Under the pieces are notes generated by a model that worked only from the letters and a program-made list of their open reading frames with translations, did not search any database and was not told the DNA's origin. Both the position numbers and the translations under genes were made by a program. Below, in pieces: positions 815-63,248 of a DNA stretch of 64,000 bases (position 1 is the stretch's first letter; the number at the start of each line of letters is the position of its first letter). Source of the stretch: Planctomycetota bacterium (GTDB taxonomy: Bacteria; Planctomycetota; UBA1135; UBA2386); contig JAPYTD010000006.1 of assembly GCA_029936315.1 (NCBI GenBank), forward strand, positions 16,442 to 80,441, in the 5' to 3' direction.

Positions 815-821
815 CTGCGGT

Positions 822-15886: not shown

Positions 15887-16007
15887 TCGCCCAACACGGC
15901 GAACACGGTCCTCCGCACCGGAAATAAATGGCCTGACAGGCTACGATGCGGGTTGGCTACCAGCTACGAGCCCCCGCTTGCCCTGGCGGGGCCACCATCC
16001 CACGCCC

Positions 16008-19000
16008 ATGCAAAACCGAGTAGTTGTCACGGCAGGCCTTGCCGTGCTCATTCTCGCTATCGTTCTGATCGCTCTGTTTGGATTTGGTGGCGGTGCTGAT
16101 GTCACCCTGCCAGCCGGCCCAGATGATCCGACGGTGAGCTCTGATGCCGACGCTGCCAAGGGCGATTTGGTTGCCGAAGTAGCCGGTGCGAGCGGATCGA
16201 TGGCGAATGCTGACCGCGAAGAGGTCGGTGACGGCCGGGCACCGACTGGTGTGCGCGGGATCGTTGTCGACGCCAAGACCGGCAAGCCGCTCGGAGGTGT
16301 CGAAGTGTATGCGGTCAAGGATCAGCCATCCCTGGCACCGCTCATCGATCGTTTTCGCGGTTTGTTCCAGCAGGGCATGTTCGTTGACACGCGTGCGCCG
16401 CGCCGCGAGTTGGGGCGCACCGTCAGCAATCCGGACGGCACGTTTGAGCTCAAAGGCCTGAAGCCGGGTCGCATGTTCCTCGATGGTCGCAGTGACGGTT
16501 GGTTTGTGCGCACGCCTGTGTCAACGAGGTTGGCAGAGGGCCAGATCAAGGAAGGTGTCGAGCTGCGCGCGTCGCCAGGTGGTCGCGTGCGCGGGATCGT
16601 TCTCGGTGCCGACGGTGCGCCGGCTGGTGGCGCCAACGTCAGCGTGCGACCGGGTCTCAACGCGTTCCTCGGCCAGTTGACGGACCGCCAATACCGCTGG
16701 CTTGACACCATTGCCGACGAAAACGGTCGCTTCGACATTCCTGGTGTGCCTCAAGGCAATGGCTACACGGTGTCGGCGACGGCGCCGTCGATCGCGCTCG
16801 AAGAAGTGCATGGCGTCGCGGTACATGCGAATCAGGTCACGACGCTGACAATCCAGGGCCATCAGGGCGCGCGCATCGCGGGTCAGGTGTTGGATCCGCT
16901 GGGTGAGCCAATGGCTGGTGCCAACATCGCGATGATCTACCTCGATCTGAGTCGCGTGTTGTTCTCAGCCGATGGGCGCAATGAAGCCATCGTCACCAAC
17001 GCCGAGGGCTACTTCGAAATCGAACATGTCGGCGCGGGTCGCGTGGCTGTGGTTGCCGCTGCGACCGACGTCGCGCCGAGCAACATCGTCGAGTTGGCCG
17101 TCGTCGATGGCGGTGTCTATGACGACCTGCTGCTAGAACTTGGCGCAGGTTCGACGGTCACCGGGATGGTCGTCGACGACCAGGACAACCCCGTTGCCGG
17201 TGCGGCAATTGTGATGCGCCCGTTCGAGCGCCCGAACGATCCGCAGTTCATGAAGATGATGCTGAAGGTGCGCCGCGTCGAGACCACGACCGATGTGCAG
17301 GGCAAGTTCGCGGTCAAGGGCATGACCGGCGACCAAATCGTCATCCAGGCGAGTAAGCCTGGCTATACGACGGCGATCGCTTCTGGCTATGACCTTGACG
17401 ACAAGGACATCATCGTCAAGGTGCAGCGCGGCGTGACGATTCGCGGCAGGGTCATGTCCGGCGACAAGCCGGTGACTCGGTTCCGCGTAGATACCCGCAC
17501 GCGCGAGGTTCCGAAGGACAAGGACGGCAATGTCATCGCTGCGGATACGACTTCCGATCGCAGTAGCCGTCGTGCGCGCGCGCGGTCCGATCGCGGTGAC
17601 GGTGACGGTGGTCGACGGTGGGGTCGCAGAGGCAAGCGCACTCGTCAACTACCGGAAGGCCAGAAGATGGGCGGGCGCGGCATGAGCGGCAATTGGCGCG
17701 AGATCAAGTCGAGCGATGGTACCTTCACGCTGACCGGGATTCCCCCGGGTCGCATTCGGGTTCGTGTGCGGGCCGATGGCTACATCGAACCGGAGAACCA
17801 GACGCTGGACCTGGCGCCGGCCACGAAGAGCGACGAACTCGTCTTCGAGTTGGTCGGCGGCCAACCGGTTGCTGGCCGCGTTGTCGATGACTTTGGCAGC
17901 CCTGTCAGTGATGCCCAAATCACGGCCTACAAGAAGAAAGACACGAGCGATGGAGGCCGCCGCAGCATGCGGATGAGCTTCTCCATCGATCCTGAGGACT
18001 TCGACTTCCTTGCCCTGTCGACGAATCGTCGCAGCGCGATGAGCAACACGAAGGGCGAGTTCACGGTGGCTGCGTTGGAGCCGGGCGAGTACCGGTTCAC
18101 GGCGCGACACCCGGATCTGGCCAAATCGTCGACCAAGAAAGTAGTCGTCGAAGCTGGCGTCGAAACGCCGATCGTCGAGATCGCGATCGATGCGGGTGGC
18201 GCTGTCGAGGGAACGGTAACTGGTCTCGCCATGCGTCCACTGCGCGATGCATTGATGGTCGCGTTTAGCCTGCAGGCTGGATCGATGCGAAGTGGCACGA
18301 CCGACCAGAACGGCTACTACAAGATCGCCGGTCTGCCGCCGGGGCAATACATCGTCTTCAAGTCGCGCTTGGATGAGCGCGCCGACAACATCGGCCTCGA
18401 GCTGATGAGTAACATGCGCCTGAAGACCGTCACGGTGCGGCGTGGTAAGGTCGCGCGGCTCGACGTTCATGACGAAGGCGAAGACGGTGTGCGCGTCTTT
18501 GGTGTTGTTCGCGAGAACGGCGTGCCGGTGCCGCGGGCGCTGATCACCCTGTTAGGCAGCGACCGTCAGGGGTTGCTTGGCATGGGCGTGCGCGCGAATG
18601 CTGCTGGCACGGATGGCCGCTACGAGTTGGTCGGCATCAAGCCCGGCGACTACGTGATGCAGGTCACGCGCTTCCAAGGCCAGCCGGTGCAGACGACGTT
18701 CGAGATCGAAGTTCCGGAAGAGGTCAGCGAATACGCGCTCGATATCACCTTGCCGACGAGCACGATCACCGGAACGGTTCTCGACACGCGTGGCAACCCG
18801 GTCAAGGGCATGCGGGTGACGCTTGGCAGCGACGACAGTTCTTTGTCGGGCAATGGTCTGATTGGCATGATCGCCGCCAACGGCCTCAGCCGGGCGCGCA
18901 CCAACGACGAAGGCGTGTTCACGATGAAGTCGGTTGCGGCCGGCACCTATCGCTTGACGGCGGGCAGTCGCATGGGCAGCGGTCGTCGTGGCCGTCGTGC

Positions 19001-19733
19001 TCGCGAAGGTGAGCCGCAGTATGGTGAGGCTAGCCTCAACGATGTTCTCGTGGATGGCTTCACGGCCGTCGAGGGCTTGGTGATCAACGTGCCGCTGGCT
19101 GGCAAGATCACTGGCATCGTGCTCGATGGCTCGAACCAGCCTGTTGCGAACGCCGAGATTTCGTACGCCGAGCAGACAGTCAAGAAGCGCCGCAAGAAGA
19201 GCAACCCATTGCTCGATCTGCTGGGCTCTCAGCAGCCGGTTCGAACGGGCGAAGATGGTCGCTTCGAGATTGCCGCGTTGACGCCAGGCAAGTACTCGTT
19301 GCGCGTAGAAAGTGAGGCTCTCGAAGCCGGTAAGCTCGACGAGGTGCAAGTCTACGAAGACTCGCCGAGCGAAGTGACGTTGCATGTCGTCACGGGCGCG
19401 ACCCTCAAGGTGCGCGCGACCAACGTCAGCAAGAAGCAGATTCCGTTTGGCAACATCACGCTGCTCGATGGTCGCGGCAAACCAATCGTGAGTCGGGTGT
19501 CGACGTTCTCGGTGTTGAAGCGGCTGATGAACAGCCGTGACAGCGTCGAAGATTCGGGCTGGTACGAGTTCGGTAGTGTGCCGCCAGACACCTACACCCT
19601 GGTCTTGAAGGAGGACGGGCAACCTGAAGTTCGCATCGTTCGCACGATTCGCGACGGCGAAACTGTGATGTGGGACATCGATGTCGAGGCCGAGTTGGCA
19701 GCTCGCGAGCGCGACAAGGAAAAGAAGAAGTAA
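16008..19733 (+). CDS. Large membrane-anchored or secreted protein built of carboxypeptidase-regulatory-like (CarboxypepD_reg) beta-sandwich repeats
   Basis: The ATG at 16008 gives an N-terminal TM/signal anchor (VVVTAGLAVLILAIVLIALFG). More than 10 repeats follow, of the type G.V.D..G.P..GA.V......(t..dG.f.i.gl.pG.y.l). Confidence 0.8.
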   Translation: MQNRVVVTAGLAVLILAIVLIALFGFGGGADVTLPAGPDDPTVSSDADAAKGDLVAEVAGASGSMANADREEVGDGRAPTGVRGIVVDAKTGKPLGGVEVYAVKDQPSLAPLIDRFRGLFQQGMFVDTRAPRRELGRTVSNPDGTFELKGLKPGRMFLDGRSDGWFVRTPVSTRLAEGQIKEGVELRASPGGRVRGIVLGADGAPAGGANVSVRPGLNAFLGQLTDRQYRWLDTIADENGRFDIPGVPQGNGYTVSATAPSIALEEVHGVAVHANQVTTLTIQGHQGARIAGQVLDPLGEPMAGANIAMIYLDLSRVLFSADGRNEAIVTNAEGYFEIEHVGAGRVAVVAAATDVAPSNIVELAVVDGGVYDDLLLELGAGSTVTGMVVDDQDNPVAGAAIVMRPFERPNDPQFMKMMLKVRRVETTTDVQGKFAVKGMTGDQIVIQASKPGYTTAIASGYDLDDKDIIVKVQRGVTIRGRVMSGDKPVTRFRVDTRTREVPKDKDGNVIAADTTSDRSSRRARARSDRGDGDGGRRWGRRGKRTRQLPEGQKMGGRGMSGNWREIKSSDGTFTLTGIPPGRIRVRVRADGYIEPENQTLDLAPATKSDELVFELVGGQPVAGRVVDDFGSPVSDAQITAYKKKDTSDGGRRSMRMSFSIDPEDFDFLALSTNRRSAMSNTKGEFTVAALEPGEYRFTARHPDLAKSSTKKVVVEAGVETPIVEIAIDAGGAVEGTVTGLAMRPLRDALMVAFSLQAGSMRSGTTDQNGYYKIAGLPPGQYIVFKSRLDERADNIGLELMSNMRLKTVTVRRGKVARLDVHDEGEDGVRVFGVVRENGVPVPRALITLLGSDRQGLLGMGVRANAAGTDGRYELVGIKPGDYVMQVTRFQGQPVQTTFEIEVPEEVSEYALDITLPTSTITGTVLDTRGNPVKGMRVTLGSDDSSLSGNGLIGMIAANGLSRARTNDEGVFTMKSVAAGTYRLTAGSRMGSGRRGRRAREGEPQYGEASLNDVLVDGFTAVEGLVINVPLAGKITGIVLDGSNQPVANAEISYAEQTVKKRRKKSNPLLDLLGSQQPVRTGEDGRFEIAALTPGKYSLRVESEALEAGKLDEVQVYEDSPSEVTLHVVTGATLKVRATNVSKKQIPFGNITLLDGRGKPIVSRVSTFSVLKRLMNSRDSVEDSGWYEFGSVPPDTYTLVLKEDGQPEVRIVRTIRDGETVMWDIDVEAELAARERDKEKKK

Positions 19734-19793: not shown

Positions 19794-21878
19794 ATGCCAT
19801 CCATCCGAAACGTCCTCGCGTTCTTCCTCGGCATGGTGCTGTTTGCGGCACCATCCGCGGCGACCTGGTCGATCGTCATCGTCAACCTTACGACTGGTGA
19901 GGTCGCAGTCGGCATCGCAACGTGCCTGGTCGGATTCGATCTTCGCCCAAACACGGTGGTGATCGTTCCCGGTTATGGCGTGGCCGCGGCGCAGTCGTTC
20001 GTCGGTCCGCTGTCGCTGCGGCAGTTGATCCGCGATGGCTTCCTCAGCGGCGAGTCTTCGACCCAGATCCTCGCGGCCCTCGCGGCGGCCGATCCCGGCC
20101 ATCAGTCACGCCAGTACGGCATCGTCAGCTTGGCTGGCGGCGAAGTGACGTTCACCGGCTCGGGAGCTGGCGGTTGGGCTGGCGGGGTCACTGGACAGGT
20201 CGGCAACTACCGCTACGCGATCCAGGGCAACGTGCTTACCGGTCAGCCGGTGGTCGCGGCCGCCGAGCAAGCGATCCTGACGACGGTCGGCGACTTGCCG
20301 GAGAAGCTGATGGCGGCGATGGATGCTGCGCGCCTGATGGGCGGTGATGGTCGTTGCTCGTGCAGCCAAGGCGCCCCGACATCGTGTGGTTCGCCGCCAC
20401 CGAGCTTTACCAAGTCCGCGCACATCGGCTTGATGATTGTCAGTCGCCCGAGTGATGTCGATTCGCCGTGCACTGGCGGTCTCGGTTGTGGGGCCGGTGA
20501 CTACTGGCTCGATCTCAACGTTGCCAACCAATCGGCGGCGGCGCTCGATCCCGTGCTGCAGCTGCAGGCTCTCTACAACACTTGGAAAACCAACCAGATT
20601 GGTCGCCCGGATCACTACCAGTCGGTGGTGACGCTGAGTGACACGACCATGCTCGCCAACGGCATCGACATGGTCACCGCGACCGTCGAGTTGCGTGATG
20701 CGCAGGGATCTCCGGTCGGTAACAGTTTGCCGCTCACAGTTGCACTCGCCGGCAACAGCACGGTCAGCAACGTGTCGTTTGGCCCGGTGAATCCACAAGC
20801 GAACGGTACCTATACCTTCACGATGCAGGGCAACCTGGAGTCCGGCGTTGCCGTTCTGGATATCGCCGCTACGGACACCTTCGGCCGCGTTGGTCTGTGG
20901 CCGCGCCCGATGGTGACAGTGACCGACTTGTTTGGCCCGTGCGGTGCTGGTGCGATTCCCGATGGCCAAGGCGGTGCCTTGGCAGCGCTGCGCATCAATG
21001 GCACTGCCGGTGTCGATCGAGTCGTCGAGGTCGGTTATGGCCAGCCATTCACGATCACGCTGCAGGCACCGGTCGGTGTGCCGGGGACCTTCCCAGTCGG
21101 CATGTTCGCGCTGTGGGCCAACGATGGCGTTCCGACGCCCGGCAGTGTGTTGCCGCTCGGCGGTGTTGGCGGGTCGATGTGCTTCACACCGTCGTTGTTG
21201 ATGCCGTCGGCACCGAACGTGTTGCTCGCCGATTCATTCGGCCTCGGCAGCGTGGTGCCATCGTCACCAGCTGCGTGGAGCCTCACCGTGCCCGGCCTGC
21301 CGGTCGTGCTCGATGCCTCCCTGCAGGGTGTCATGATCGTCGATCCACAAGCAAGCATCGCGGCGACCAACGCGGTGTTCCTGCGATTGACGGCATTGCC
21401 ATCTCCCGTCATCACGACGATCTCGCCGCCGGCGGCTACGCCTGGCCAGGTTGTTACGGTCACGGGCAGCAACTTCTTCTCTGGCATCGTGGGCCGTATC
21501 GGTGCGACCGTCGTGCCAGTGACGCTCGTGTCGCCGACCGAAGCAACGTTCCCGATGCCGGCTGGCGTGGCCTGCGATGCGATGCTCGAACTAGGCAACC
21601 TGACTGGCATGTCGGTGTTTGCGCCGGTCAATCCAACGCCGGTGCTTAACAGTGTGCCGATCACGAGTGGTCCCGCTGCTGGTGGCAACAACATCGTGTT
21701 GGTCGGAACGGGCATGGCGGGCGCGACGGTTGCGATTGGTGGTGTGCCGATGGTGATCACCACGCAGACGGCCAGTGTGATCTTCGCCGTTGTGCCTCCC
21801 GGCTCGGTTGGGCCAGCCACGATCGTCGTGCAAAACGCCAATGGCTGCCAGGTGTCGACGACCTACACCTACTTGTAG
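19794..21878 (+). CDS. Exported DUF1028 (Ntn-hydrolase-like) protein with C-terminal Ig-like and IPT/TIG domains
   Basis: The signal peptide is followed by ATWSIVIVNLTTGEVAVGIA, matching the DUF1028 T(F/W)SIV N-terminal nucleophile pattern. IPT/TIG-like repeats are PVITTISPPAATPGQVVTVTGSNF and PVLNSVPITSGPAAGGNNIVLVGTG. Confidence 0.7.
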   Translation: MPSIRNVLAFFLGMVLFAAPSAATWSIVIVNLTTGEVAVGIATCLVGFDLRPNTVVIVPGYGVAAAQSFVGPLSLRQLIRDGFLSGESSTQILAALAAADPGHQSRQYGIVSLAGGEVTFTGSGAGGWAGGVTGQVGNYRYAIQGNVLTGQPVVAAAEQAILTTVGDLPEKLMAAMDAARLMGGDGRCSCSQGAPTSCGSPPPSFTKSAHIGLMIVSRPSDVDSPCTGGLGCGAGDYWLDLNVANQSAAALDPVLQLQALYNTWKTNQIGRPDHYQSVVTLSDTTMLANGIDMVTATVELRDAQGSPVGNSLPLTVALAGNSTVSNVSFGPVNPQANGTYTFTMQGNLESGVAVLDIAATDTFGRVGLWPRPMVTVTDLFGPCGAGAIPDGQGGALAALRINGTAGVDRVVEVGYGQPFTITLQAPVGVPGTFPVGMFALWANDGVPTPGSVLPLGGVGGSMCFTPSLLMPSAPNVLLADSFGLGSVVPSSPAAWSLTVPGLPVVLDASLQGVMIVDPQASIAATNAVFLRLTALPSPVITTISPPAATPGQVVTVTGSNFFSGIVGRIGATVVPVTLVSPTEATFPMPAGVACDAMLELGNLTGMSVFAPVNPTPVLNSVPITSGPAAGGNNIVLVGTGMAGATVAIGGVPMVITTQTASVIFAVVPPGSVGPATIVVQNANGCQVSTTYTYL

Positions 21879-23686
21879 AGGTCTTGTCGCAGCGCGGCGA
21901 GCCAACGCCGCGGTCGCCGTTGCTCTTCGGGTAGCTCGCGCTCGATGCGCCAGAAGCCTTTGACGAACGGTTCGCCGCGCGTTAACCACTCGACGTCGCT
22001 GTACGACAGCCCGAACGCTGCTCCGACCGATACGTCGATCGTGGTCGTCAACTCGCGGCGTTGCTGTGCATTGGTCACTGGATCGCGCGCGCCGCACCAG
22101 CCTTCAGTTTGAGCCAGGTGCCACAGATCGTGAGTCCATCGTGTCGTCGCGCACAGGCGCAAGGCCAACACCGCCAGCTCGGTCGTGCGTTGTTCGTCGA
22201 CGACCGGCAGCATGCAATCGGTCAGCACAAAGCGGTTGAGGTTGGTGCCGCCGAGTCGCATGCGTAGCGCCCAGTCGAACGGTAGCGACGCGAGCATCGC
22301 AGTTGCCGCCGCCAGTTGCCGCAGCGGGGTCCCGCCCGGCTTGCGGGGCGTCAGCACGCCGAGCGAGTTGCCGCACGGCACATCGGGTAGCAGGCACGCG
22401 ATCGCCGTGCGTTCGTTGGTGGCGTTCGACAGCGCCCTTAGCCCGATGCGCGCCGGGAAGCGCGTTGTCTTGTTCCTGCGCCACGGCTCGGCTGCGACCA
22501 GGTAGAGCGGCACGAGTTCGTCGGGCCCGTTGGGCGTGCGCCAGCGAGTTTTATGGCCGACACCACAATCGTGCGCACCGGAGTTGGCTTGCAGGTCGTA
22601 GATCATCGCACCTTGGCGCAGTGCGATCAGGTCGCCCTGTCCCTTGCACCGCCAGATACCAGTGCCGTCATGACGATAGCCGTCTTGTTCCGCTTGCTCT
22701 CGTCGCACGAACTGATCCTTGTCCGACGTCATGTTGAAGTCGCCTTGCCGCCAAGTCAGCGAGCCGTGCTCGCCGAGCAGTGCTCGGCCGCGGGCATGCA
22801 TGCGCGTCAGGATGTCGAGATCCCGTCGGGTCGCAACCTCGACGAACGTGCCGGAGTGCGGGCTCAGGTGTTGCAGTTCTTGGCGCTGGTAGGCGACGTG
22901 CGTGGGGGCTCTTGCGGCCCAGTCCTCGAGCTTGGTCTTCCCAAACGCGACCTGCACCTCTTGCGTGCTGCCGCCCTTGGTCGCGATAACCGCGCCGAAG
23001 CGATAGCGGCTGTCGATGGCGAAGATGCGCTCGCGGTTTTCGAAACCAAACAGCCATTGCCACTCACACGTGTCGAGTAGCAGCCGACGCAGCGGCTCCG
23101 CGTCGCGATCAAACCAAAGGCTGGCTGGCACGATCAGGCCAAGCCGGCCGCCGGGGCGCAGCAGTTGCACCGCGCGTTCGACGAACAGGCGATAGGTGTA
23201 GAGCTTGCCTTTGCCCTGGTGTTGGAAGAGCGGTCGAAGCTTGGCTACGCGCGCCTTGGCATCATCGCCGTCCTGCAGCGTCTCCCATGGTGGGTTGGTC
23301 AACACACAGTCGAACGACTCCGGCTCGAGGTCCGTCAACCCATCGCCAACTTCGAGCGATAGACGTGGTTCGCCTTGCGTTCTCAGTGCCTTGACCGCGA
23401 GCTCGATGGCCGCCGCGTCGAGATCTACGCCGGCGAATTTATGGGTGCCAGCTGGGTGCTGCGCCCGTAGCGCCGTCGCCGCAGCCAGCAGGAATGAGCC
23501 ACCTCCGACCGCCGGGTCGCAGATGCGCAGTGCTCGCCCTGTGAGTGGCGCCAGCGTGCGTCGCGCAGTTGGCAACGCGAGTTCCATGGGCGTAAACCAG
23601 ATGCCGTCGCGCTTGCGGCGTTCGAGCGGCAGCCCGTCCTGGTAGCGAGCCGTCTCGGTGCTCCAACTCTCGTTGCTCTCACTCAC
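21869..23686 (-). CDS. N6-adenine DNA methyltransferase (Eco57I/TaqI-like gamma class) with a C-terminal specificity-like region
   Basis: Motif I is ICDPAVGGGSFLLAA and motif IV is DCVLTNPPWE, with an upstream DGIWFTP element. The GTG start at 23686 overlaps the ilvA TGA stop (GTGA). The 3' end overlaps the convergent gene by 10 nt. Confidence 0.85.
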   Translation of the reverse strand: MSESNESWSTETARYQDGLPLERRKRDGIWFTPMELALPTARRTLAPLTGRALRICDPAVGGGSFLLAAATALRAQHPAGTHKFAGVDLDAAAIELAVKALRTQGEPRLSLEVGDGLTDLEPESFDCVLTNPPWETLQDGDDAKARVAKLRPLFQHQGKGKLYTYRLFVERAVQLLRPGGRLGLIVPASLWFDRDAEPLRRLLLDTCEWQWLFGFENRERIFAIDSRYRFGAVIATKGGSTQEVQVAFGKTKLEDWAARAPTHVAYQRQELQHLSPHSGTFVEVATRRDLDILTRMHARGRALLGEHGSLTWRQGDFNMTSDKDQFVRREQAEQDGYRHDGTGIWRCKGQGDLIALRQGAMIYDLQANSGAHDCGVGHKTRWRTPNGPDELVPLYLVAAEPWRRNKTTRFPARIGLRALSNATNERTAIACLLPDVPCGNSLGVLTPRKPGGTPLRQLAAATAMLASLPFDWALRMRLGGTNLNRFVLTDCMLPVVDEQRTTELAVLALRLCATTRWTHDLWHLAQTEGWCGARDPVTNAQQRRELTTTIDVSVGAAFGLSYSDVEWLTRGEPFVKGFWRIERELPEEQRRPRRWLAALRQDLYK

Positions 23687-34301: not shown

Positions 34302-35435
34302 TTAGGCGCCGATTTCCTCATACACCGTGGAACGCTGAACGGGTTTGTAGCCCGCTTCGCGAATGAGGTGTGCGATCTGGTCAACGCTGAGCGCCTCCGG
34401 TTCGGTGGTGCCTGCGTCGTGCGTGATCTTCTCCTCGGTCACGGTGCCGTCGATATCGTTGGCGCCAAAGCTCAAAGCAGTCTGTGCTGATTCCTGGGTC
34501 AGCATGATCCAGTAGGCCTTGATATGAGGGAAGTTGTCGAGCATCAGGCGGCCGACGGCAATGGACCTCAGGTCAAGGTGGCCCGTTGTGACATGCCCGA
34601 AGTTCTTGAGGTCCGTGTGGTACGGCCAGAAGGCGAGCGGGATGTACGCCATGAAGCCGCCACACTCGTCCTGCACTTCACGCAAGCGAATCAGGTGCTG
34701 GACCCGCTCTTCGACGCGCTCGATGTGGCCATAGAGCATCGTGGCATTCATCTTGAAGCCGTTGCGCTGCACCTTGCGTGCCGCTTCGAGCCAACGATCG
34801 GGGCCCATCTTCTCGCGGAAGACCGCTTTGTGCACACGATCAACGAGCACTTCGGCGCCGCCGCCAGGGCACGAACCGAGACCAGCATCGCGCAGATCCT
34901 GGAACACCTGCTCTTCGGTCTTGCCTGAGATGTTGAGCATGTGCTCGATCTCAACCATCGTGAACGCCTTTACGTGGATGTCGGGTCGCGCGCGCTTGGC
35001 GGCCTTGACGACGTCGATGTAGTACTCGTAGGGCATCGTCGGGTGGATGCCCGCGACCATGTGCACTTCGGTGACCGGCCGGTGCATTTGCTCGCGCACC
35101 TTCTGCTCGACGACTTCCGGAGTCATCAGGTAGCCGCGCTCCTCATCAACCTTTGCCGCGAACGCGCAGAACTTGCACGAGTACATGCAGATGTTGGTGT
35201 AGTTGACGTGCTGGTTGATGTTGAAGAACACCTTCCTGCCGTGCTTCTCGGTGCGCACGCGGTGCGCCATCAAGCCAACGGCCGCGAGGTGCGGCGTCTT
35301 GTAGAGCATGACGCCGTCATCGAACGTCAGGCGTTCGCCGTTGCGGACCTTACGATCGATTTCGCCGAGACCGGCGCGGTCGATCAGCTTTCGGGCCAGG
35401 GATTCGTCGAGGTGGTCGTAGTCGAAGTTCTGCAT
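34302..35435 (-). CDS. mqnE: Aminofutalosine synthase-like radical SAM enzyme (futalosine menaquinone pathway)
   Basis: NYTNICMYSCKFCAF (CxxxCxxC) and VTEVHMVAGIHPTMPYEYYIDVV..DIHVKAFTMVEIEH match my recollection of the MqnE pattern. ATG at 35435 (alternative 35477). Confidence 0.75.
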   Translation of the reverse strand: MQNFDYDHLDESLARKLIDRAGLGEIDRKVRNGERLTFDDGVMLYKTPHLAAVGLMAHRVRTEKHGRKVFFNINQHVNYTNICMYSCKFCAFAAKVDEERGYLMTPEVVEQKVREQMHRPVTEVHMVAGIHPTMPYEYYIDVVKAAKRARPDIHVKAFTMVEIEHMLNISGKTEEQVFQDLRDAGLGSCPGGGAEVLVDRVHKAVFREKMGPDRWLEAARKVQRNGFKMNATMLYGHIERVEERVQHLIRLREVQDECGGFMAYIPLAFWPYHTDLKNFGHVTTGHLDLRSIAVGRLMLDNFPHIKAYWIMLTQESAQTALSFGANDIDGTVTEEKITHDAGTTEPEALSVDQIAHLIREAGYKPVQRSTVYEEIGA

Positions 35436-35475
35436 TGGGGGATTCAGCGAACAAGGTAACGGCGCACCGCCGGGC

Positions 35476-35514
35476 ACGAGAGACGAAACCGCCGGTTGTC
35501 CTGCAAACGGCGGT
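35476..35514 (-). terminator. Hairpin plus U-rich tract on the minus strand, 246 nt after the engB stop and about 50 nt before the mqnE ATG
   Basis: On the minus strand: ACCGCCG-uuugcaggacaac-CGGCGGU followed by UUCGUCUCUCG. The perfect 7-bp stem spans 35488..35514. It could terminate engB transcripts or act as an attenuator for mqnE. Confidence 0.35.
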
Positions 35515-39074: not shown

Positions 39075-40019
39075 CTACTTCGTCCAGAGGCCGCGATGAC
39101 GCGCCTGGTCGAGCTCGAGGTGGATGATCTCCGGCCGCGAGTAGTGCCCCGAGATGTCGAAGTTCTGCCGTTCGCGTCGAACGAACGCGTGATCCAGTTC
39201 GGCGACCAGAAGTTCTTCACGACCAACTACTGGCGCAACCACCCAGGTCGCATCCGGTGCCGCAATGCATGAGCCACCGTTGCCACTCATCGCCGGAAGC
39301 GCCGCCCGCAACTCATCTGCGCGCGGCACACTGTCCGGAATGTCCTCGCGCCGCATCAGGCTCGACACCGACAAGACGTAGCTGCGGCCTTCGCGCGCCG
39401 CGAATCGTGTGATCTCTTCGGTGTTTTTCTTGTTGCCGGGCCAGATCGCGACGTGCAGGTCTTCACCTTGCGCATGCAGAGCGGCGCGCGATAGCGGCAT
39501 CCAGTTCTCCCAGCAGTTGAGCACTCCCATGCGGAACGGCGGCAAGGTATTGGTGCGCAACCCGTGGCCGTCGCCTTGGGCCCACACCAACCGTTCTTCA
39601 TGGGTTGGCATCAACTTGCGGTGCGTCGGTTGGATGAGGCCGTTTTGCCCAATGGTCACCGCCGAGCAGTAGATCGAGTGGCCGCCACGATCGAGCGCAC
39701 GCTCCATGCAGCCGAGCACGATCGCCATGTTGTGTTCGCGCGCCACCTCGGCGAGCTCCTTGAAGTGCATTTGCGGCTCACAGCTCTGGTCGCTGTAGTG
39801 CGCAAACCACTCCTTCTGCCGCATGTCATCAAAGCGCGCGCCATCGGTGTGCTCGATCCACCAAGGGTAGCCGGGCACCAGCGCTTCGCCGAACGCGACC
39901 AGGCCGGCGCCCTTAGCGGCAGCGCGTTCTGCCCACTCGCGCACCTTCTCGATCGTGCGGTCGCGGTCGAGCCAGACTGGCGCAATCTGCGCCAACGCCA
40001 CCGTCAGCTTCTCACTCAT
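39075..40019 (-). CDS. Nitrilase (carbon-nitrogen hydrolase branch 1)
   Basis: VALAQIAPVWLDR, FGEALVPGYPWW and the catalytic Cys motif LNCWENWMP. It starts 19 nt downstream of the mqnC stop. Confidence 0.85.
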   Translation of the reverse strand: MSEKLTVALAQIAPVWLDRDRTIEKVREWAERAAAKGAGLVAFGEALVPGYPWWIEHTDGARFDDMRQKEWFAHYSDQSCEPQMHFKELAEVAREHNMAIVLGCMERALDRGGHSIYCSAVTIGQNGLIQPTHRKLMPTHEERLVWAQGDGHGLRTNTLPPFRMGVLNCWENWMPLSRAALHAQGEDLHVAIWPGNKKNTEEITRFAAREGRSYVLSVSSLMRREDIPDSVPRADELRAALPAMSGNGGSCIAAPDATWVVAPVVGREELLVAELDHAFVRRERQNFDISGHYSRPEIIHLELDQARHRGLWTK

Positions 40020-40037
40020 GATGACGTTCGTCCTGTG

Positions 40038-41240
40038 CTACGCCTCGACCTTGGAGACGATCTTCTTCTTCTTTTTGGCACTCTTGTCGACACCGAACTT
40101 GTCGGTCTCTGGCGTGTCGATGTGCTCGTACAGCATGTTGCGACGTTGCGGCACGAAGCCGGCGTCCTTGATGTGGCGTTCGATTTCGGGGATGGAGGTC
40201 GGGTGCGTGCAGCCAGCGGAGCTGACGACGTTCTCTTCGAGCATCGCGGAGCCGAAGTCGTCGGCGCCCATCGACAAGCCGATCTGGCACGTCTTCATGC
40301 CTTGCGTGACGAAGCTCGATTGGATGTGCGGAACGTTTTGCAGGTAGAGGCGCGAGGTGCTCAACGTGCGCAGGTATTCGGCGACCGTTGCCTTCTGGCC
40401 TCCACGCGCGGCCAAGAACTCATCGCCCTTCTCGGTGTTTTCCGGCTGGAACGTCCACGGGATGAACGCGGTGAACACGTTCGTCTCGTCTTGCAGTTCG
40501 CGGATGCGCGTCATGTGCTCGATGCGATCGGCGTCACTCTCGACGTGACCAAACATCATCGTTGCGGTGCCCTTGCCACCCATGCGGCCCCATTGGCGCA
40601 TGACCTCAAGCCATTCGTCGGTCGTGGCCTTCTTTGGCGCGATGATCTTGCGCACACTCTCGACCAGGATCTCGGCACCACCACCAGGAATCGATTGCAG
40701 ACCGGCCGCCTTCAAATCGGCAAGCACGTTCTGCACAGGGCGCTTCTCCATCTTGGCGACGTGCGTGATCTCTGGCGGGCTCATGCCGTGGATCCAAACC
40801 TGCGGGTAGCGAGCCTTCAGATCCTGGAACAGCTCGGCGTACCACTCGGTCTTGAGACCAGGGTGGTGTCCACCTTGCAGCAGCAACTGCATGCCACCTT
40901 GTGCGATCAGTTCGTCGACCTTCTGGTAGATGACTTCGCGCGGCAGGATGTAGGCGTCGGCGTCGCCCGGCGATCGATAGAACGCGCAGAAACCGCAGTC
41001 GGTGATGCAGACGTTCGTTGGGTTGAGGTTGCGATCGACGATGTAGGTGACTTTTTGCTTGCCGTCCTCACCGGGTGGGTTGAGGCGCGTGCGCACGTCG
41101 TTGGCCAGCAGGCTGAGCGACGGTTGGTCGAGGCCGCGGTATAGCACGAGTGCTTCGTCAGCAGTCAGCACACCGCCATCGACGGCCTTGGTTGCGAGTT
41201 CAGAGATACGGTTCAAGTCAGGGGTGCCAGCGGAAGCCAT
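40038..41240 (-). CDS. mqnC: Cyclic dehypoxanthinyl futalosine synthase-like radical SAM enzyme
   Basis: VTYIVDRNLNPTNVCITDCGFCAFYR (CxxxCxxC) and GGMQLLLQGGHHPGLKTEWYAELFQDLKARYPQVWIHGMSPPEI match my recollection of the MqnC pattern. Confidence 0.75.
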   Translation of the reverse strand: MASAGTPDLNRISELATKAVDGGVLTADEALVLYRGLDQPSLSLLANDVRTRLNPPGEDGKQKVTYIVDRNLNPTNVCITDCGFCAFYRSPGDADAYILPREVIYQKVDELIAQGGMQLLLQGGHHPGLKTEWYAELFQDLKARYPQVWIHGMSPPEITHVAKMEKRPVQNVLADLKAAGLQSIPGGGAEILVESVRKIIAPKKATTDEWLEVMRQWGRMGGKGTATMMFGHVESDADRIEHMTRIRELQDETNVFTAFIPWTFQPENTEKGDEFLAARGGQKATVAEYLRTLSTSRLYLQNVPHIQSSFVTQGMKTCQIGLSMGADDFGSAMLEENVVSSAGCTHPTSIPEIERHIKDAGFVPQRRNMLYEHIDTPETDKFGVDKSAKKKKKIVSKVEA

Positions 41241-48768: not shown

Positions 48769-48845
48769 CGGAGCGTGGCGCAGCCTGGTAGCGCACCTGC
48801 CTGGGGGGCAGGTGGTCGGAGGTTCAAATCCTCTCGCTCCGACCA
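48769..48845 (+). tRNA. tRNA-Pro (anticodon GGG), with encoded CCA
   Basis: CGGAGCG acceptor stem paired with CGCTCCG. D-arm is GCGCAGCCTGGTAGCGC. The anticodon stem-loop is CCTGC-CTGGGGG-GCAGG, placing GGG at the anticodon position. T-arm is GGAGGTTCAAATCCTCT, followed by ACCA. Confidence 0.9.
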
Positions 48846-49386: not shown

Positions 49387-50219
49387 CGTTGGCGGCGACG
49401 CCTCGGCCTCCAAGTTGCTTCGAACGTGCGCGTTTCCGCATCGCGCGGTTTGTCCGCAACGATGAGAGAGCGTGAGGTCGCGTTTTTGGCAAAGAACGTA
49501 AACACGTCGAGCACGCGCGCACCCTTCTTGCCGGCGACGAGGTCGTGGATGTTCTCGCGCTTTTTGCCGAGTGACGAGAAGCGGCCCGGAAGGATCAGGT
49601 CGTCGCGCGTCTCGCGAATCTCAAAGGTGTCGGGTGAATCAATCGCTGGCACGTTGCCTTGGAAGTCGTAGTTGCGAATGCGCGCTTCGCCTTCGAGGCC
49701 CATGATCACGCCGTTGTAGTTGAGGTGGTCGTGGTGCGAGAAGCCCTTGCCTGGCTTGAGGTGTATCGCCATGACACCAATCGGGAAGCGCTCCCCTTGC
49801 TTGCGATGCTGCTTCGAGAACTTGCGCATGGCGTCACGAATCGGCGCCTTGGGATCGCGCAACCGACTCATCGCTGCGGCGACCGTCATCAGGTAGGCCT
49901 GTTCGTCCTCACCCTTCGAGTCGACCAGGCGACGAGCTTGCGGGTAGAGCTGCTCAAGGAACTCGGCGTGCGTCAATTTGCCCATGCCCTCCTGTGGCCC
50001 CGTGCGGTCTGGTGGCGTTGGCGCTGGCTTGGGGTCTTGGGCGGGCAGAGAAACTGCGCCGACGAGCATCGAGCTCACGGCGGCGGCCGATAGCCACAGG
50101 ATGCTGCGCCGTTCGATGACGACTCCGTCTTCGATCTCGACACCACATTCCGTGTCCTGGACCGCGCAGCGTTCATCGTCGCTAAGTAGCGTCTCATCGT
50201 CTCGGCCGAAGTAGCTCAT
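49383..50219 (-). CDS. Cupin-domain protein with a Tat-like signal
   Basis: RRSILWLSAAAVSSMLVGAVSLPA is a twin-arginine-like signal. The cupin metal motif is GKGFSHHDH (G-x5-H-x-H). Its stop overlaps the start of the downstream gene by 4 nt. The start is uncertain. Confidence 0.55.
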   Translation of the reverse strand: MSYFGRDDETLLSDDERCAVQDTECGVEIEDGVVIERRSILWLSAAAVSSMLVGAVSLPAQDPKPAPTPPDRTGPQEGMGKLTHAEFLEQLYPQARRLVDSKGEDEQAYLMTVAAAMSRLRDPKAPIRDAMRKFSKQHRKQGERFPIGVMAIHLKPGKGFSHHDHLNYNGVIMGLEGEARIRNYDFQGNVPAIDSPDTFEIRETRDDLILPGRFSSLGKKRENIHDLVAGKKGARVLDVFTFFAKNATSRSLIVADKPRDAETRTFEATWRPRRRRQR

Positions 50220-50283
50220 GCCGGGATCCTACCGTGAGATGGCTCGTCACACGTTGACTTCGCGGTCGGATCAGATCCACTGC

Positions 50284-51585
50284 ATGCCGATGACTGCCCG
50301 AGATGTACCGATTCTGTTTGGCGATGGCCGGCTTTCGCTGCGTGTGCCATCGTCGGCGGACATCCTGACCGGGCCGGTCATCCCTGTTCTCGCGGATCCG
50401 GCAGACGCCGTGACAACAGCTTTGCGCAGCCCAATCGGTAGCCCGTCGCTGCGTGCGATTGCCGAATCGAGGCAGCCGAGTTCGGTCGTGATCACGATGA
50501 GTGACATCACGCGGCCGGTTCCGAACGAACTGCTGATCACGGCGATCCTCGCGGAACTCAATGCGACCGGCATCCCGGACAGTGCGTGCACGATCTTGAT
50601 CGCGACGGGCATGCATCGTGCGTCGACACGCAAAGAGCGTGAGATCATGCTCGGCAAAGATCTGTTGCGCCGGTGTCGGGTCGTCGATCACGAGTCGGAC
50701 CAACCAGAGACCCTGGTGCAGATCAGCGAAGAACCGCCGGTCGGCATCAACCGCATCTATGCCGATGCGGACCTCAAGATCGTGACTGGTTTGATCGAGC
50801 CGCATTTCATGGCGGGCTACTCTGGCGGTCGCAAGGGCATCTGTCCTGGGTTGGTCGACATGCGCACGGTGCAACGCTTCCACGGCCACAAGACGATGGG
50901 GGACCCGGATGCCGTCGAGGGCAAGTTGCTCGGCAACCCATGCCATGAGATCGCGATGCAGGTCGTTGCCTTGACCAGCTGCGACTTCTTGGTGAACGCG
51001 GCGATCACCAACAACCGTGAGTTGGCCGGCGTGTTTGCCGGCGACTTGTTTGCCGCCCACGAGCAAGGCTGCAAGCAGGTCTCTGTGTGGACGTCGGCAA
51101 AGGTCGAACAACCCTACGATCTGGTGGTGCAGTCTGCCGGTGGCTACCCGCTCGACCAGAGTTTCTACCAGACGGTCAAAGGCATGGTCACGGCATTGCC
51201 CGCGCTGCACGAGGGCTCGACGTTGTTGATGTGCTCGGCGTGCACGGAGGTCGGTTCGCCCGAATACACCGAGTTGATGTTGCAGCGTGGCAGCGACTAC
51301 CGCGGGTTCTTGGATCACATAAAGGCGACCGAGGTTACCCAGAAGGACCAGTGGCAGTTCCAGATGCAGACGCGCGTGTTGGATCGCGTCGGTGTCACCG
51401 GGCTTGTGATGGCGAACGATGGGTTGCCGCTGGACGTGCAGCAGGGTCTCGCTGTGACGCCGGCTGTTGGCAGTGGCGATGCGCCGCAGCGAGCGCAGGC
51501 GCTGATCGATGCCTACGTTGCCCGAGCGCCGGATGCGCGGATCGCGATCATTCCGGACGGTCCTTACACGATGTTGCGCAACTAA
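50284..51585 (+). CDS. LarA-like (lactate racemase / DUF2088) domain protein
   Basis: DITRPVPNELL, ATGMHR and GLIEPHFMAGYSGGRKGICPG are LarA-family motifs. I chose the ATG at 50284 because the track start at 50218 would overlap the divergent gene start. Confidence 0.8.
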   Translation: MPMTARDVPILFGDGRLSLRVPSSADILTGPVIPVLADPADAVTTALRSPIGSPSLRAIAESRQPSSVVITMSDITRPVPNELLITAILAELNATGIPDSACTILIATGMHRASTRKEREIMLGKDLLRRCRVVDHESDQPETLVQISEEPPVGINRIYADADLKIVTGLIEPHFMAGYSGGRKGICPGLVDMRTVQRFHGHKTMGDPDAVEGKLLGNPCHEIAMQVVALTSCDFLVNAAITNNRELAGVFAGDLFAAHEQGCKQVSVWTSAKVEQPYDLVVQSAGGYPLDQSFYQTVKGMVTALPALHEGSTLLMCSACTEVGSPEYTELMLQRGSDYRGFLDHIKATEVTQKDQWQFQMQTRVLDRVGVTGLVMANDGLPLDVQQGLAVTPAVGSGDAPQRAQALIDAYVARAPDARIAIIPDGPYTMLRN

Positions 51586-51644
51586 GCCGTGAACTGGCAG
51601 TCTGCTGTGGAACGCGCGCGTTTGCGCCCTACCATGCTCGCCCA

Positions 51645-52187
51645 ATGAACCTGACTCAGCTTGTCGATTTCCTCCTTAAGTGGCGGGATACGAACCCCAA
51701 TGGAACGAAGAAGGCGTTGGCTGCGGCGGTGACTGCGCAATCTGATCTGCGTCTCGACAAGGCACTGTTGGTCGGCGCTGAGTGCGTGCTGCGCATCAAC
51801 CAGATGCAGCAAGCCGGCGACGACTCCTACGCCGTCGCCGCCTTGCACAAGCTGTGTGAATACGATGATCGGCCGATTGTGGTGTGCTTGCTGACGACGC
51901 GCGGCATGCGCTTGTTGTTGGCCAACACGTCGTTGATCGAGAAGGTCTCGGAACGTTCGTATCGTTTGGCGAACGAGAACCTGACTGGCAGCGTGCTCGA
52001 TACGGACATCCTGGCGGCGCTCGATGGGATCGCCAATCTGCCGGACAACTTCGAGAAGCTGTGGACTGCCCACCAGGCGAGTGATCGCATCGCCAACATC
52101 GAGCGCATTGTCGGCACGACGCAGGCGATGCACGCGGTGTCCGCCGCCGAGAACCCCGGTAGCGTCAAGCCCCGTACTTCTCGCTAA
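51645..52187 (+). CDS. Hypothetical protein
   Basis: The ATG at 51645 (MNLTQLVDFLLKWRD..) gives 180 aa with protein-like composition. The upstream part of track ORF 51087..52187 overlaps larA in another frame. No family recognised. Confidence 0.5.
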   Translation: MNLTQLVDFLLKWRDTNPNGTKKALAAAVTAQSDLRLDKALLVGAECVLRINQMQQAGDDSYAVAALHKLCEYDDRPIVVCLLTTRGMRLLLANTSLIEKVSERSYRLANENLTGSVLDTDILAALDGIANLPDNFEKLWTAHQASDRIANIERIVGTTQAMHAVSAAENPGSVKPRTSR

Positions 52188-61692: not shown

Positions 61693-62781
61693 ATGAACCG
61701 CATTTCCTACGGTGCAGCTGCTTGCGTGCTGCTGCTTTCTTGTGACGCGCTTGCGCAGGGCCGCGGCGGTCGCCAGCGCGGCGTCAACGTCGCTCGCATG
61801 CTCGAAAGATACGACGCCAACGACGACGGCAAGTTGACCAAGGATGAGGTTGCAAGCGCGTCGATGTGGCGACGACTGGTTGCTGTGGACAAGGATAAGG
61901 ATGGTGCCGTCACCAAGAAGGAGATGGAATCGTTGACGAGCGGCCGCGGTGGTCGCAGTCGCGGCGGCGAAGCGACGTGGAAGTTCTTGCAAGAGAAGTA
62001 CGACGGCGACAAAGACGGCAAGATCAGTGCGAAGGAGTACACACGCGGCAAGGCGACGTTCGCGCGGCTTGACAAGGACAAGGATGGAGTCCTGACCAAG
62101 AAGGATTGGGACGTGCCAGGCGAGCGTCGTTCGCGCGGCGGCAATCGAGACCGCAACGCCAAGAGCTCCGCGCCCGAAGCGGGCGATCGCGCACCAGACT
62201 TTACGTTGACCTACGTCGGTGACGCCAAGAAGAGCATGAAGCTGTCGGACTACGTCGGCAAGAAGCCCGTCGCGTTGGTGTTCGGGAGCTGTACTTGACG
62301 ACCGTTCGTGAGCTCAGCTGGTCAGCTGAGCGATCTCTACGCGGAGTTCTCCAAGGACGTTCAGTTCTTCCTCGTCTACTGCCGTGAGGCCCATGCGATC
62401 GATGGCAAGAATCCAGGCAGCAAGCCGGTCGAAGATCCCATCAGTGACGCGGAGCGCCGCTCCGTCGCGAAGAAGTTTGTTGCGGATATGAACCTGGAGA
62501 TCCCGACGTTGCTTGATGGTGTCGACGATGCCGTAGGCAAGGCCTACGCATCCCACCCAGATCGTCTCTACCTGATTGGCAAGGATGGTCTGGTTGCTTA
62601 CGCCGGCGACCGCGGACCCTCTGGCTTCGAACCGCGCGAACTTGCTGAGGCGATCGAGGACGAGTTGTTCCGCATCGAGGCGAAGCAGCCAGCGAAGGAT
62701 AAGCCCGCCAAGAAGAAGGCCGGCAAGACCACGTCGGACCGAAAGAAGTCTGGCAAGAAGGGGCCGTCGTACATTCGCTGA
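61693..62781 (+). CDS. Exported selenoprotein with four EF-hands and an iodothyronine-deiodinase-like thioredoxin fold. The in-frame TGA at 62296..62298 is read as selenocysteine.
   Basis: Track ORFs 61693..62298 and 62308..62781 share one frame. The junction reads KPVALVFGSCT-TGA-RPFVSSAGQLSDLYAEFSKDVQFFLVYCREAHAIDG ... DRLYLIGKDGLVAYAGDRGPSGFEPRELAEAIE. This parallels the deiodinase active site FGSCT-U-PSF ... EEAHASDGW ... ERLYI..G.I.YKG..GPW.Y.PEEV. The N-terminal half has a signal peptide and four EF-hand loops. Confidence 0.75.
62312..62331 (+). promoter_or_regulatory. Bacterial SECIS-like stem-loop downstream of the in-frame UGA
   Basis: GCUCAGCU-GGUC-AGCUGAGC: a perfect 8-bp stem with a GGUC apical loop. 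The stem starts 14 nt after the UGA, and the loop GGU lies at +25 to +27 counting the U of UGA as +1. Confidence 0.55.
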
Positions 62782-62852: not shown

Positions 62853-63248
62853 ATGAGAATCTACAGGCACCTGCTTTCTGTCAGCCTTGCGTTGGTAGGC
62901 GCGGCTCTTACGAGTTGCGCGACCACGAACGGCGACCCGTCAGCGACCGTAAACACCGACGCCTACAGCGTTGTCTTCCAAGGCAGCAAGGTCGAGGTGA
63001 CGTGCAGGCGGCCGATGGTACTAGGGGACTTCCTCAAGATGGCTCAGGCCGTAACCGGGAGGGTGTACATCTTCAAGAGCCCGGTCCCTGGCGGGGTGCG
63101 CTGGGAGTGGGTGGGCACCGTGAACGTCGAACGCGCGGAATTTGATGACTTCGTGGCCACCATGCTCAAGGTGAATGGCATGACCGCAGAGGCGCGACGG
63201 CACGGGGACGTAGACTTCATCGAGGTCATCCCCTTCAAGCGCGGCTGA
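62853..63248 (+). CDS. Small lipoprotein with a secretin-N0/STN-like fold pattern
   Basis: Signal MRIYRHLLSVSLALVGAALTSC (lipobox). VLGDFLKMAQAVTGRVYIF...VERAEFDDFVATMLKVNGM resembles the short N-terminal domain of secretins and TonB-dependent receptors. Weak call. Confidence 0.5.
   Translation: MRIYRHLLSVSLALVGAALTSCATTNGDPSATVNTDAYSVVFQGSKVEVTCRRPMVLGDFLKMAQAVTGRVYIFKSPVPGGVRWEWVGTVNVERAEFDDFVATMLKVNGMTAEARRHGDVDFIEVIPFKRG

Follow-up and report, generated by a model that had tools for sequence, protein, structure and literature searches.

A probable exported deiodinase-like selenoprotein encoded across an in-frame TGA in a Planctomycetota contig

Does a TGA codon lying between two adjacent open reading frames (ORFs) of a Planctomycetota contig end one gene, or does it encode selenocysteine (Sec) in the middle of a longer one? 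The question is raised by positions 61693–62781 (+ strand) of a 64,000-nt stretch of contig JAPYTD010000006.1; this whole stretch is referred to below as the window. The first ORF (61693–62298) starts with ATG, codes for 201 amino acids and is terminated by TGA at 62296–62298. The second (62308–62781) starts with GTG, codes for 157 amino acids and shares the frame of the first (offset 615 = 205×3); between the last sense codon of the one and the GTG of the other there are TGA, CGA, CCG and TTC, and nothing else. On read-through, the junction is ...KPVALVFGSCT-[TGA]-RPFVSSAGQLSDLYAEFSKDVQFFLVYCREAHAIDG..., and a later block reads DRLYLIGKDGLVAYAGDRGPSGFEPRELAEAIE. A first-pass annotation, made from the letters of the window, had described this in-frame pair, its spacer and its junction exactly as they stand in the sequence and had proposed a hidden selenoprotein. 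Our analysis makes it very probable that the two ORFs are indeed one gene for an exported bacterial deiodinase-like selenoprotein, with the TGA recoded as Sec202.

Read as one, the gene (61693–62781, + strand) has 362 codons including Sec202 and ends with a true stop TGA at 62779–62781. Its PF00837 and EF-hand domains lie in a single frame, and its homologues match it both before and after the internal TGA. Identical DNA was found in three NCBI metagenome assemblies, where it is annotated as a 201-aa and a 157-aa gene. The TGA is thus no sequencing error peculiar to the window, and the expectation that gene callers would split the gene is borne out both by these assemblies and by the fragments deposited in protein databases.

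One indication that both halves belong together comes from the catalytic domain. With Cys written for the TGA in the read-through protein, the Pfam family T4_deiodinase (PF00837) matched with E = 4.6e-24 and 85.5 bits (gathering score 27) as a single stretch, aa 162–322 (profile positions 74–234 of 237), which crosses the TGA at aa 202. Peroxiredoxin models also pass, AhpC-TSA with 38.8 bits (cut-off 26) and Redoxin with 37 bits (cut-off 26.6), yet both fall far behind the deiodinase model, and the protein is therefore filed as deiodinase-like. The closest solved structures are the catalytic domain of mouse Dio3 (4TR3, E = 2.5e-19) and then Dio2 (9H48, E = 3.9e-10), and the next matches in the PDB (thioredoxin-family proteins, peroxiredoxin, ResA) have E ~1e-3. 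Together, the Pfam match and the two structural alignments place a thioredoxin-fold deiodinase-like catalytic domain at 62176–62658 (+ strand; aa 162–322).

In the Dio3 alignment the window TGA falls on the catalytic Sec170 of the mouse enzyme (Cys in the crystal construct, FGSCTCPPF), and the Dio3/Dio2 motifs FGSCT-C/U-PPF ... IYIEEAHPSDGW ... ERLYVI can be followed along the domain. Dio3 residues Ser167, Cys168, Thr169, Sec170, Tyr197, Glu200, His202, Asp205 and Arg275 are kept in the window protein. Ser167/Cys168/Thr169/Sec170 correspond to Ser199/Cys200/Thr201/Sec202, Tyr197/Glu200/His202 to Tyr229/Glu232/His234, and Arg275 to Arg307; Cys230 and Asp290 also lie in the domain, and the position of Dio3 Pro171 is occupied by Arg. 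Among 83 bacterial Sec forms, Sec, Pro172, Tyr197, Glu200 and His202 (Dio3 numbering) are invariant, and two further positions are nearly so (Ser167 is Ser in 81 of 83; Thr169 is Thr in 77 and Ser in 6). The conserved deiodinase residues have been assigned a role in proton relay, and Arg275/His202 a role in substrate binding (PMC11592359). The first-pass annotation had claimed likeness to a deiodinase, human DIO1, both across the junction and in the C-terminal block; the junction-spanning PF00837 match and the equivalent motifs of Dio3 and Dio2 uphold this. They also agree with its argument that a TGA acting as a stop would leave the first ORF one residue short of its catalytic residue and the second without the N-terminal part of the fold.

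How is this position encoded in relatives? Nearly all of the 62 relatives retrieved from 5.8 billion proteins are fragments. DNA loci were collected from GTDB genomes (nine, with three full-length relatives) and from JGI metagenomes (the best 80 of at least 575 that were confirmed among 600 candidate stretches). One GTDB locus named to taxon, L001, belongs to a Planctomycetota metagenome-assembled genome. In the best loci, which are 42–100% identical to the window protein and show homology on both sides, the aligned codon is TGA in 88 of 88. The database fragments tell the same story from the protein side. Eight N-terminal fragments from different contigs all stop at ...VALVFGSCT, and the C-terminal fragments start at differing Met or Val codons (MSSAGQL..., MQFFLVY..., MVYCREAH..., MEDPIS...), so that the restart codon is not conserved. 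Three full-length homologues (P0034, P0039 and P0051) have Cys at the Sec position (FGSCTCPPF), and in the two Cys homologues with DNA (L093 and L094) its codon is TGC. The aligned position, which the first-pass annotation had asked to be compared, is therefore either Sec (TGA) or Cys, and in every orthologue that stops there the homology resumes in frame further on. Finally, the three codons after the TGA are kept in relatives as x-Pro-Phe/Tyr, and they vary mostly in the third position: columns 9 and 12 of the alignment are variable, and C7, C8, T10 and T11 never change. Conservation as amino acids with third-position variation indicates that translation runs through the TGA.

Two further loci bear on the same position. 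For P0044 (L095 193–864, a TARA scaffold) the public gene call gives Trp at the Sec site (FGSFTWPPF). The L095 DNA has TGA there and cannot be translated to the deposited P0044 under code 11; P0044 is thus a Sec form, wrongly translated by a gene call that took TGA for a sense codon. Another contig (L044) carries tandem deiodinase-like Sec genes, with TGA at 2202 and at 3112, one reading FGSCT-U and the other FGSYT-U, which points to a paralogous duplication within the family.

The first-pass annotation had noted that a SECIS-like hairpin follows the TGA. A hairpin of the bacterial selenocysteine insertion sequence (SECIS) type does lie inside the read-through ORF, at 62312–62331 (+ strand). 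It has a perfect 8-bp stem, GCUCAGCU / AGCUGAGC, and encodes SSAGQLS. The hairpin begins 13 nt past the UGA, its apical loop is GGUC (62320–62323), the UGA-to-loop distance is 21 nt and the folding energy is −12.3 kcal/mol. According to the bacterial SECIS (bSECIS) model, the apical loop has 3–9 nt, the upper stem 4–16 bp, and one of the first two loop positions is G, usually as G[G/U] (PMC13188914); the UGA-to-loop distance is 16–37 nt and the minimum free energy at most −7.5 kcal/mol (PMC13188914, Fig. 2). The window hairpin lies within all four criteria of this model. An equally good element follows 23 of the 1,696 other TGA trinucleotides in the window (1.4%), and perfect 8-bp hairpins occur 10 times on the + strand in the 64 kb.

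The stem also covaries. We used a gap-free alignment of 29 relatives with the same register and compared it with 500 shuffles. The GGUC loop is invariant across the 29 relatives, and five of the eight stem pairs are changed on both sides. The loop-closing pair is C-G in 17, U-A in 11 and U-G in one, and is never unpaired; pair 19–34 is U-A in 21, G-C in five and U-G in two. Paired cells amount to 87.9%, as against 76.5% in the shuffles, and the covariation score is 0.344, as against 0.159; neither value was reached in any of the 500 shuffles. When the 3' arm was slid by 1–3 columns, pairing dropped to 12–45%. One stem pair couples a synonymous third position of Ala (GCU/GCC) to a Gln/Arg change (CAG/CGG), a coupling for which protein constraint alone hardly accounts. 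In more distant clades, other hairpins, with AGGCU or CGUGA as their loops, occupy roughly this place. A Cys homologue taken as a control, L093, has no passing bSECIS-type hairpin (−6.0 kcal/mol), although this control is weakly informative because the L093 and L094 segments are GC-rich and fold strongly overall. At the gathering threshold, Rfam returned only a tRNA-Pro for the whole window and no SECIS family.

Apart from its catalytic domain, the product has three recognizable parts. A Sec-type signal peptide is predicted, from the sequence and without a predictor, at 61693–61755 (+ strand; aa 1–21, MNRISYGAAACVLLLSCDALA, then QG); in the EF-hand clade the relatives carry comparable N-termini (basic n-region, hydrophobic core, A-x-A/Q site), which are missing from the short forms of ~200 aa. 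An EF-hand region follows at 61792–62112 (+ strand), with four canonical 12-residue loops predicted to bind Ca2+: aa 41–52 (DANDDGKLTKDE), 66–77 (DKDKDGAVTKKE), 104–115 (DGDKDGKISAKE) and 127–138 (DKDKDGVLTKKD). Pfam models EF-hand_5 (55.8 bits), EF-hand_1 (52.5), EF-hand_6 (41.8) and EF-hand_7 (41.1) all exceed their cut-offs here (aa ~35–140). Downstream of the catalytic domain there is a Lys/Arg-rich low-complexity tail (62671–62778, + strand; aa 327–362, 14 Lys or Arg in 36 residues). The tails of relatives differ in length and content, and some have extra EF-hands instead. Among 68 complete read-through ORFs, 22 have EF-hands (16 at the N-terminus only and 6 on both sides) and 46 have none. 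EF-hands that are C-terminal or on both sides occur in P0012–P0017, P0022–P0025 and others, and at loci L001, L002, L013 and L016–L019. The differing placement indicates that the Ca2+-binding module was attached in more than one arrangement.

The window clade is further set apart by two extra cysteines, Cys200 (62290–62292), at −2 from Sec, and Cys230 (62380–62382), at the position of Dio3 Ile198. Cys230 accompanies Cys200 in 11 of 12 Cys200-bearing sequences and never occurs alone. All of these co-occurrences are drawn from one clade and are thus not independent observations, so they are suggestive at most; the two residues may form a resolving relay.

From these features a mechanism may be proposed. 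During translation UGA 62296–62298 would not be taken as a stop. Instead, the hairpin at 62312–62331 would act as a SECIS recruiting SelB with GTP and Sec-tRNA(Sec), and Sec would be inserted as residue 202; such SelB-mediated delivery is inferred by analogy with E. coli fdhF and with bacterial Sec insertion in general (PMC13188914). The product would be a 362-aa protein that begins with a cleavable signal peptide, has four EF-hand loops for Ca2+ and carries a catalytic domain of the thioredoxin fold, in which the Ser-x-Thr-Sec ... Tyr-x-x-Glu-x-His network of animal deiodinases is retained. Its fold and conserved residues suggest that Sec202 probably acts as the nucleophile in a two-electron redox cycle like that of peroxiredoxins and deiodinases. 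The selenolate of Sec202 would attack an electrophilic substrate atom to give a selenenic acid or a selenenyl halide, and Cys200 would resolve the oxidised Sec202, possibly with relay to Cys230, yielding a selenenyl-sulfide. An extracytoplasmic thiol reductant would then recycle the selenenyl-sulfide. Judging from the predicted signal peptide and EF-hands, the enzyme presumably acts outside the cytoplasm and binds Ca2+.

Several observations weigh against this reading of the locus. The strict, no-bulge bSECIS test is passed by 44 of 81 homologues, and about half of the distant ones fail it. The whole 71-nt segment has a minimum free energy no better than that of its shuffles (z = −0.69; also −0.75); folding of the whole segment thus does not discriminate, and the evidence for the SECIS lies in the particular hairpin, its position and its covariation. 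Neither selA, selB, selD nor tRNA-Sec was found in the 64-kb window (Pfam on 40 ORFs, with three shadow-ORF stretches inspected by eye), which is uninformative at that size; likewise, the fetched loci contain no Sec machinery, and tRNA-Sec is absent from 47 loci. Dio3 residues Trp207, His219 and Cys239 are not kept in the window protein. The segment that corresponds to loop-D, the deiodinase-specific insertion after the EAH motif, is of the same length and aligns to Dio3 with just a 1-residue gap, but carries Lys for Trp207 and Pro for His219. Lastly, the chemistry ascribed to every bacterial member of the family is an inference from sequence.

Do these points favour another explanation of the internal TGA? 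The simplest would be that it is a genuine stop separating two genes, one for a 201-aa EF-hand protein and one for a 157-aa deiodinase-like fragment starting from GTG 62308. TGA is a common stop in the window, and this is how the genes are called in three NCBI assemblies and across the protein database. However, each product would then have half of a thioredoxin fold, the second being without β1 and the active-site turn. The supposedly intergenic codons vary synonymously and keep their amino acids, no start is conserved in relatives, full-length Cys homologues exist, and TGA is fixed at one codon in all of the 88 best loci; we regard two separate genes as very improbable. A decayed gene, or an assembly or sequencing error, in which a Cys codon TGC or TGT was mutated or misread to TGA, would need just one base change. 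Yet the identical sequence is present in three other independent assemblies, the 88 best loci with TGA are divergent and come from many samples, and the downstream part combines strong purifying selection with a covarying hairpin, which leaves this the least credible explanation of all. It might also be that the UGA is decoded as Trp, Cys or Gly instead of Sec, through near-cognate pairing or codon reassignment. The Sec machinery of the organism is not among the 64 kb, and the public call P0044 shows Trp at the site, although that Trp stems from the gene call described above and the DNA has TGA. An alternative genetic code with TGA as a sense codon is ruled out, since TGA terminates 16 of the 39 stop-terminated long ORFs in the window and is an ordinary stop elsewhere in it. 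Moreover, homologues carry Cys, the standard partner of Sec, at this site, and a conserved hairpin of the SelB type would have no role in near-cognate decoding. Read-through with another amino acid is accordingly highly improbable, if a shade less so than two genes. A Sec-decoding gene thus remains our preferred reading, and what is left to weigh is the reaction that its product catalyzes.

Here two readings compete. The enzyme may be a peroxidase or thiol oxidoreductase of the peroxiredoxin kind, or else a true dehalogenase that works reductively on halogenated phenolics in the periplasm or outside the cell. In favour of a dehalogenase, the deiodinase model is far ahead of the peroxiredoxin models (85.5 vs 38.8 and 37 bits), the proton-relay residues of deiodinases are invariant, and in this clade Arg307 corresponds to the substrate-clamp Arg275 of Dio3. 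Sec forms are also unusually frequent relative to Cys forms (22 vs 21 in the GOS survey; 88 of 88 best loci), as would be expected if selenium were hard to replace. On the other hand, the loop-D residues Trp207 and His219 are not conserved in the window protein, thyroid hormones are unexpected in bacteria (PMC1088965), and neighbouring genes show no link to dehalogenation. On balance, the sequence features would fit best a substrate of the hydroperoxide or disulfide type, as in peroxiredoxins; we rate this class most likely, if with somewhat less than even confidence. Among named classes an organohalogen, and hence a true dehalogenase, comes next, but we think it unlikely, and a substrate of some other class is a slightly stronger possibility. 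More specifically, the EF-hand-fused C-x-U clade with Cys230 might comprise Ca2+-dependent extracytoplasmic selenoenzymes that reductively dehalogenate marine organo-iodine or organo-bromine compounds. We consider this doubtful, but if it is true, the chemistry of thyroid-hormone deiodinases predates animals in bacteria and the clade offers a tractable bacterial model.

The neighbours of the selenoprotein gene are a pair of ABC-2 transporter genes, genes for a Kelch-repeat protein and an M49 peptidase, and two ORFs without a family match. Synteny is confined to the closest relatives (the window, L001 and L003), and conservation at this range indicates no functional operon partner. Directly 3' of the gene lies a 131-aa ORF (62853–63248, + strand) with a lipoprotein-like N-terminus (...LVGAALTSC) and no Pfam or NCBIfam match; it is syntenic in L001 and L003 only. 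A scan for promoters and terminators gave no signal exceeding the shuffle expectation, and no further TGA-split gene within the 64-kb window was convincing.

Elsewhere, the window codes for DUF1552/HXXSHH proteins, a sulfatase, CarboxypepD_reg repeats and many secreted proteins, a content that resembles that of planctomycetes. The largest set of repeats is in a 1251-aa protein (15978–19733, + strand; at least eight CarboxypepD_reg repeats, 309 bits), and L010 and L011 encode a large protein related to it on the 3' side of their selenoprotein genes. A radical-SAM ORF at 34302–35477 (− strand) matches Radical_SAM and the CofH/MqnC C-terminal model, and a second one at 40038–41240 (− strand) is MqnC/MqnE-like by eye; by their sequences, the two suggest a futalosine route to menaquinone. 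The second adjoins an ORF that is nitrilase-like by eye (39075–40019, − strand). Long arginine-rich ORFs at 39564–41144 (+), 50194–51645 (−) and 591–1565 (+) are shadows of genes on the opposite strand. Opposite 50194–51645, for example, the real gene is a 455-aa ORF at 50218–51585 (+ strand), LarA-like by eye. Calling the longest ORFs is therefore misleading in this sequence of 62% GC. A 605-aa Eco57I/N6-DNA-methylase-like protein (21869–23686, − strand) may be a restriction-modification enzyme of type IIG or IIL, and tRNA-Pro (GGG; 48769–48845, + strand) is the sole tRNA of the window.

What does the locus add? Public assemblies misannotate the gene as two proteins, and close homologues are nearly always deposited as half-proteins, which means that too few selenoproteins are counted in Planctomycetota and in metagenomes. 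The bacterial deiodinase-like selenoproteins share catalytic residues with the animal deiodinases of thyroid hormones. In the window clade, the predicted export and the four EF-hands suggest an extracytoplasmic, calcium-dependent role, and the dominance of Sec in the family (all 88 best loci) hints at a chemistry for which selenium has no easy substitute. The picture of selenoprotein biology is unchanged; a known family is extended with a modest architectural twist. The practical value lies in the annotation correction and in a pointer to an enzyme family awaiting assay.

How, then, does the gene compare with known systems? In E. coli fdhF the SECIS is a hairpin in the coding sequence soon after the UGA, with G-G-U in its apical loop, and the minimal element sits about 11 nt after the UGA. 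The window element shares the in-ORF hairpin shortly past the UGA and the G-G-U-containing loop. It differs in stem sequence and in its 13-nt gap, and no bulged U is evident in its perfect stem.

With animal Dio1–3 the window protein has in common the thioredoxin fold, the FGSCT-U-xPF turn, the Sec position, the Tyr-x-x-Glu-x-His motif, Asp205, the ERLY/DRLY strand and the equivalent of Arg275. In contrast, the animal enzymes are membrane-anchored homodimers, whereas the N-terminus of the window protein is a predicted signal peptide of the cleavable type, followed by EF-hands. They also use a eukaryotic SECIS in the 3'-UTR (PMC1088965), whereas that of the window is inside the ORF. Peroxiredoxins (AhpC-TSA/Redoxin) and thiol-disulfide oxidoreductases of the ResA type have the same fold, but the active site of the window protein is S-C-T-U, not PxxxTxxC or CxxC. 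Its RLYLIGKDG strand resembles, in sequence, the strand with the catalytic Arg of peroxiredoxins, and the deiodinase mechanism has been called peroxiredoxin-like in the literature.

The best NCBIfam match is NF038285, deiodinase_rel, a hypothetical equivalog of 347 positions. Its 197.3 bits fall below the curated cut-off of 250, which makes the window protein a relative of the equivalog and not a member. The match has two parts, one in the EF-hand region (aa 94–143; profile 37–86) and one in the catalytic domain (profile 173–340), which score 42.8 and 159.1 bits, respectively. Since the profile covers part of the EF-hand region, the EF-hand fusion is implicitly known to curators. A literature search for a fusion of EF-hands with a deiodinase-like domain, or for a characterised bacterial member, found nothing relevant.

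The closest comparison is with the bacterial deiodinase-like family itself. Selenoproteins of this family, with a bacterial SECIS and with Cys homologues, were described from the Sargasso Sea in 2005 by Zhang, Fomenko and Gladyshev (PMC1088965), who did not expect thyroid hormones in bacteria. The GOS survey counts 22 Sec and 21 Cys forms and lists no motif (PMC2398784), and reviews of 2022 and 2026 list the family with the redox motif UxxC (PMC9312934, PMC13188914). These sources agree with the statement in the first-pass annotation that the family is known from marine metagenomes yet uncharacterised. The window gene belongs to this known, metagenome-abundant family and is a well-supported addition to it, not a new kind. 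Shared traits are PF00837, a UGA with a SECIS directly 3', the existence of both Sec and Cys forms, a marine or metagenomic origin and a presumed redox role. However, the 83 distinct Sec forms collected here all read U-x-P-F/Y and none reads UxxC, and the window clade reads C-x-U. Nor do PMC1088965, PMC2398784, PMC9312934 or PMC13188914 mention the predicted signal peptide, the four EF-hands or the Cys200/Cys230 pair. What sets the window clade apart within the family is thus its EF-hand fusion, its predicted export and its C-x-U motif with the co-occurring second Cys.

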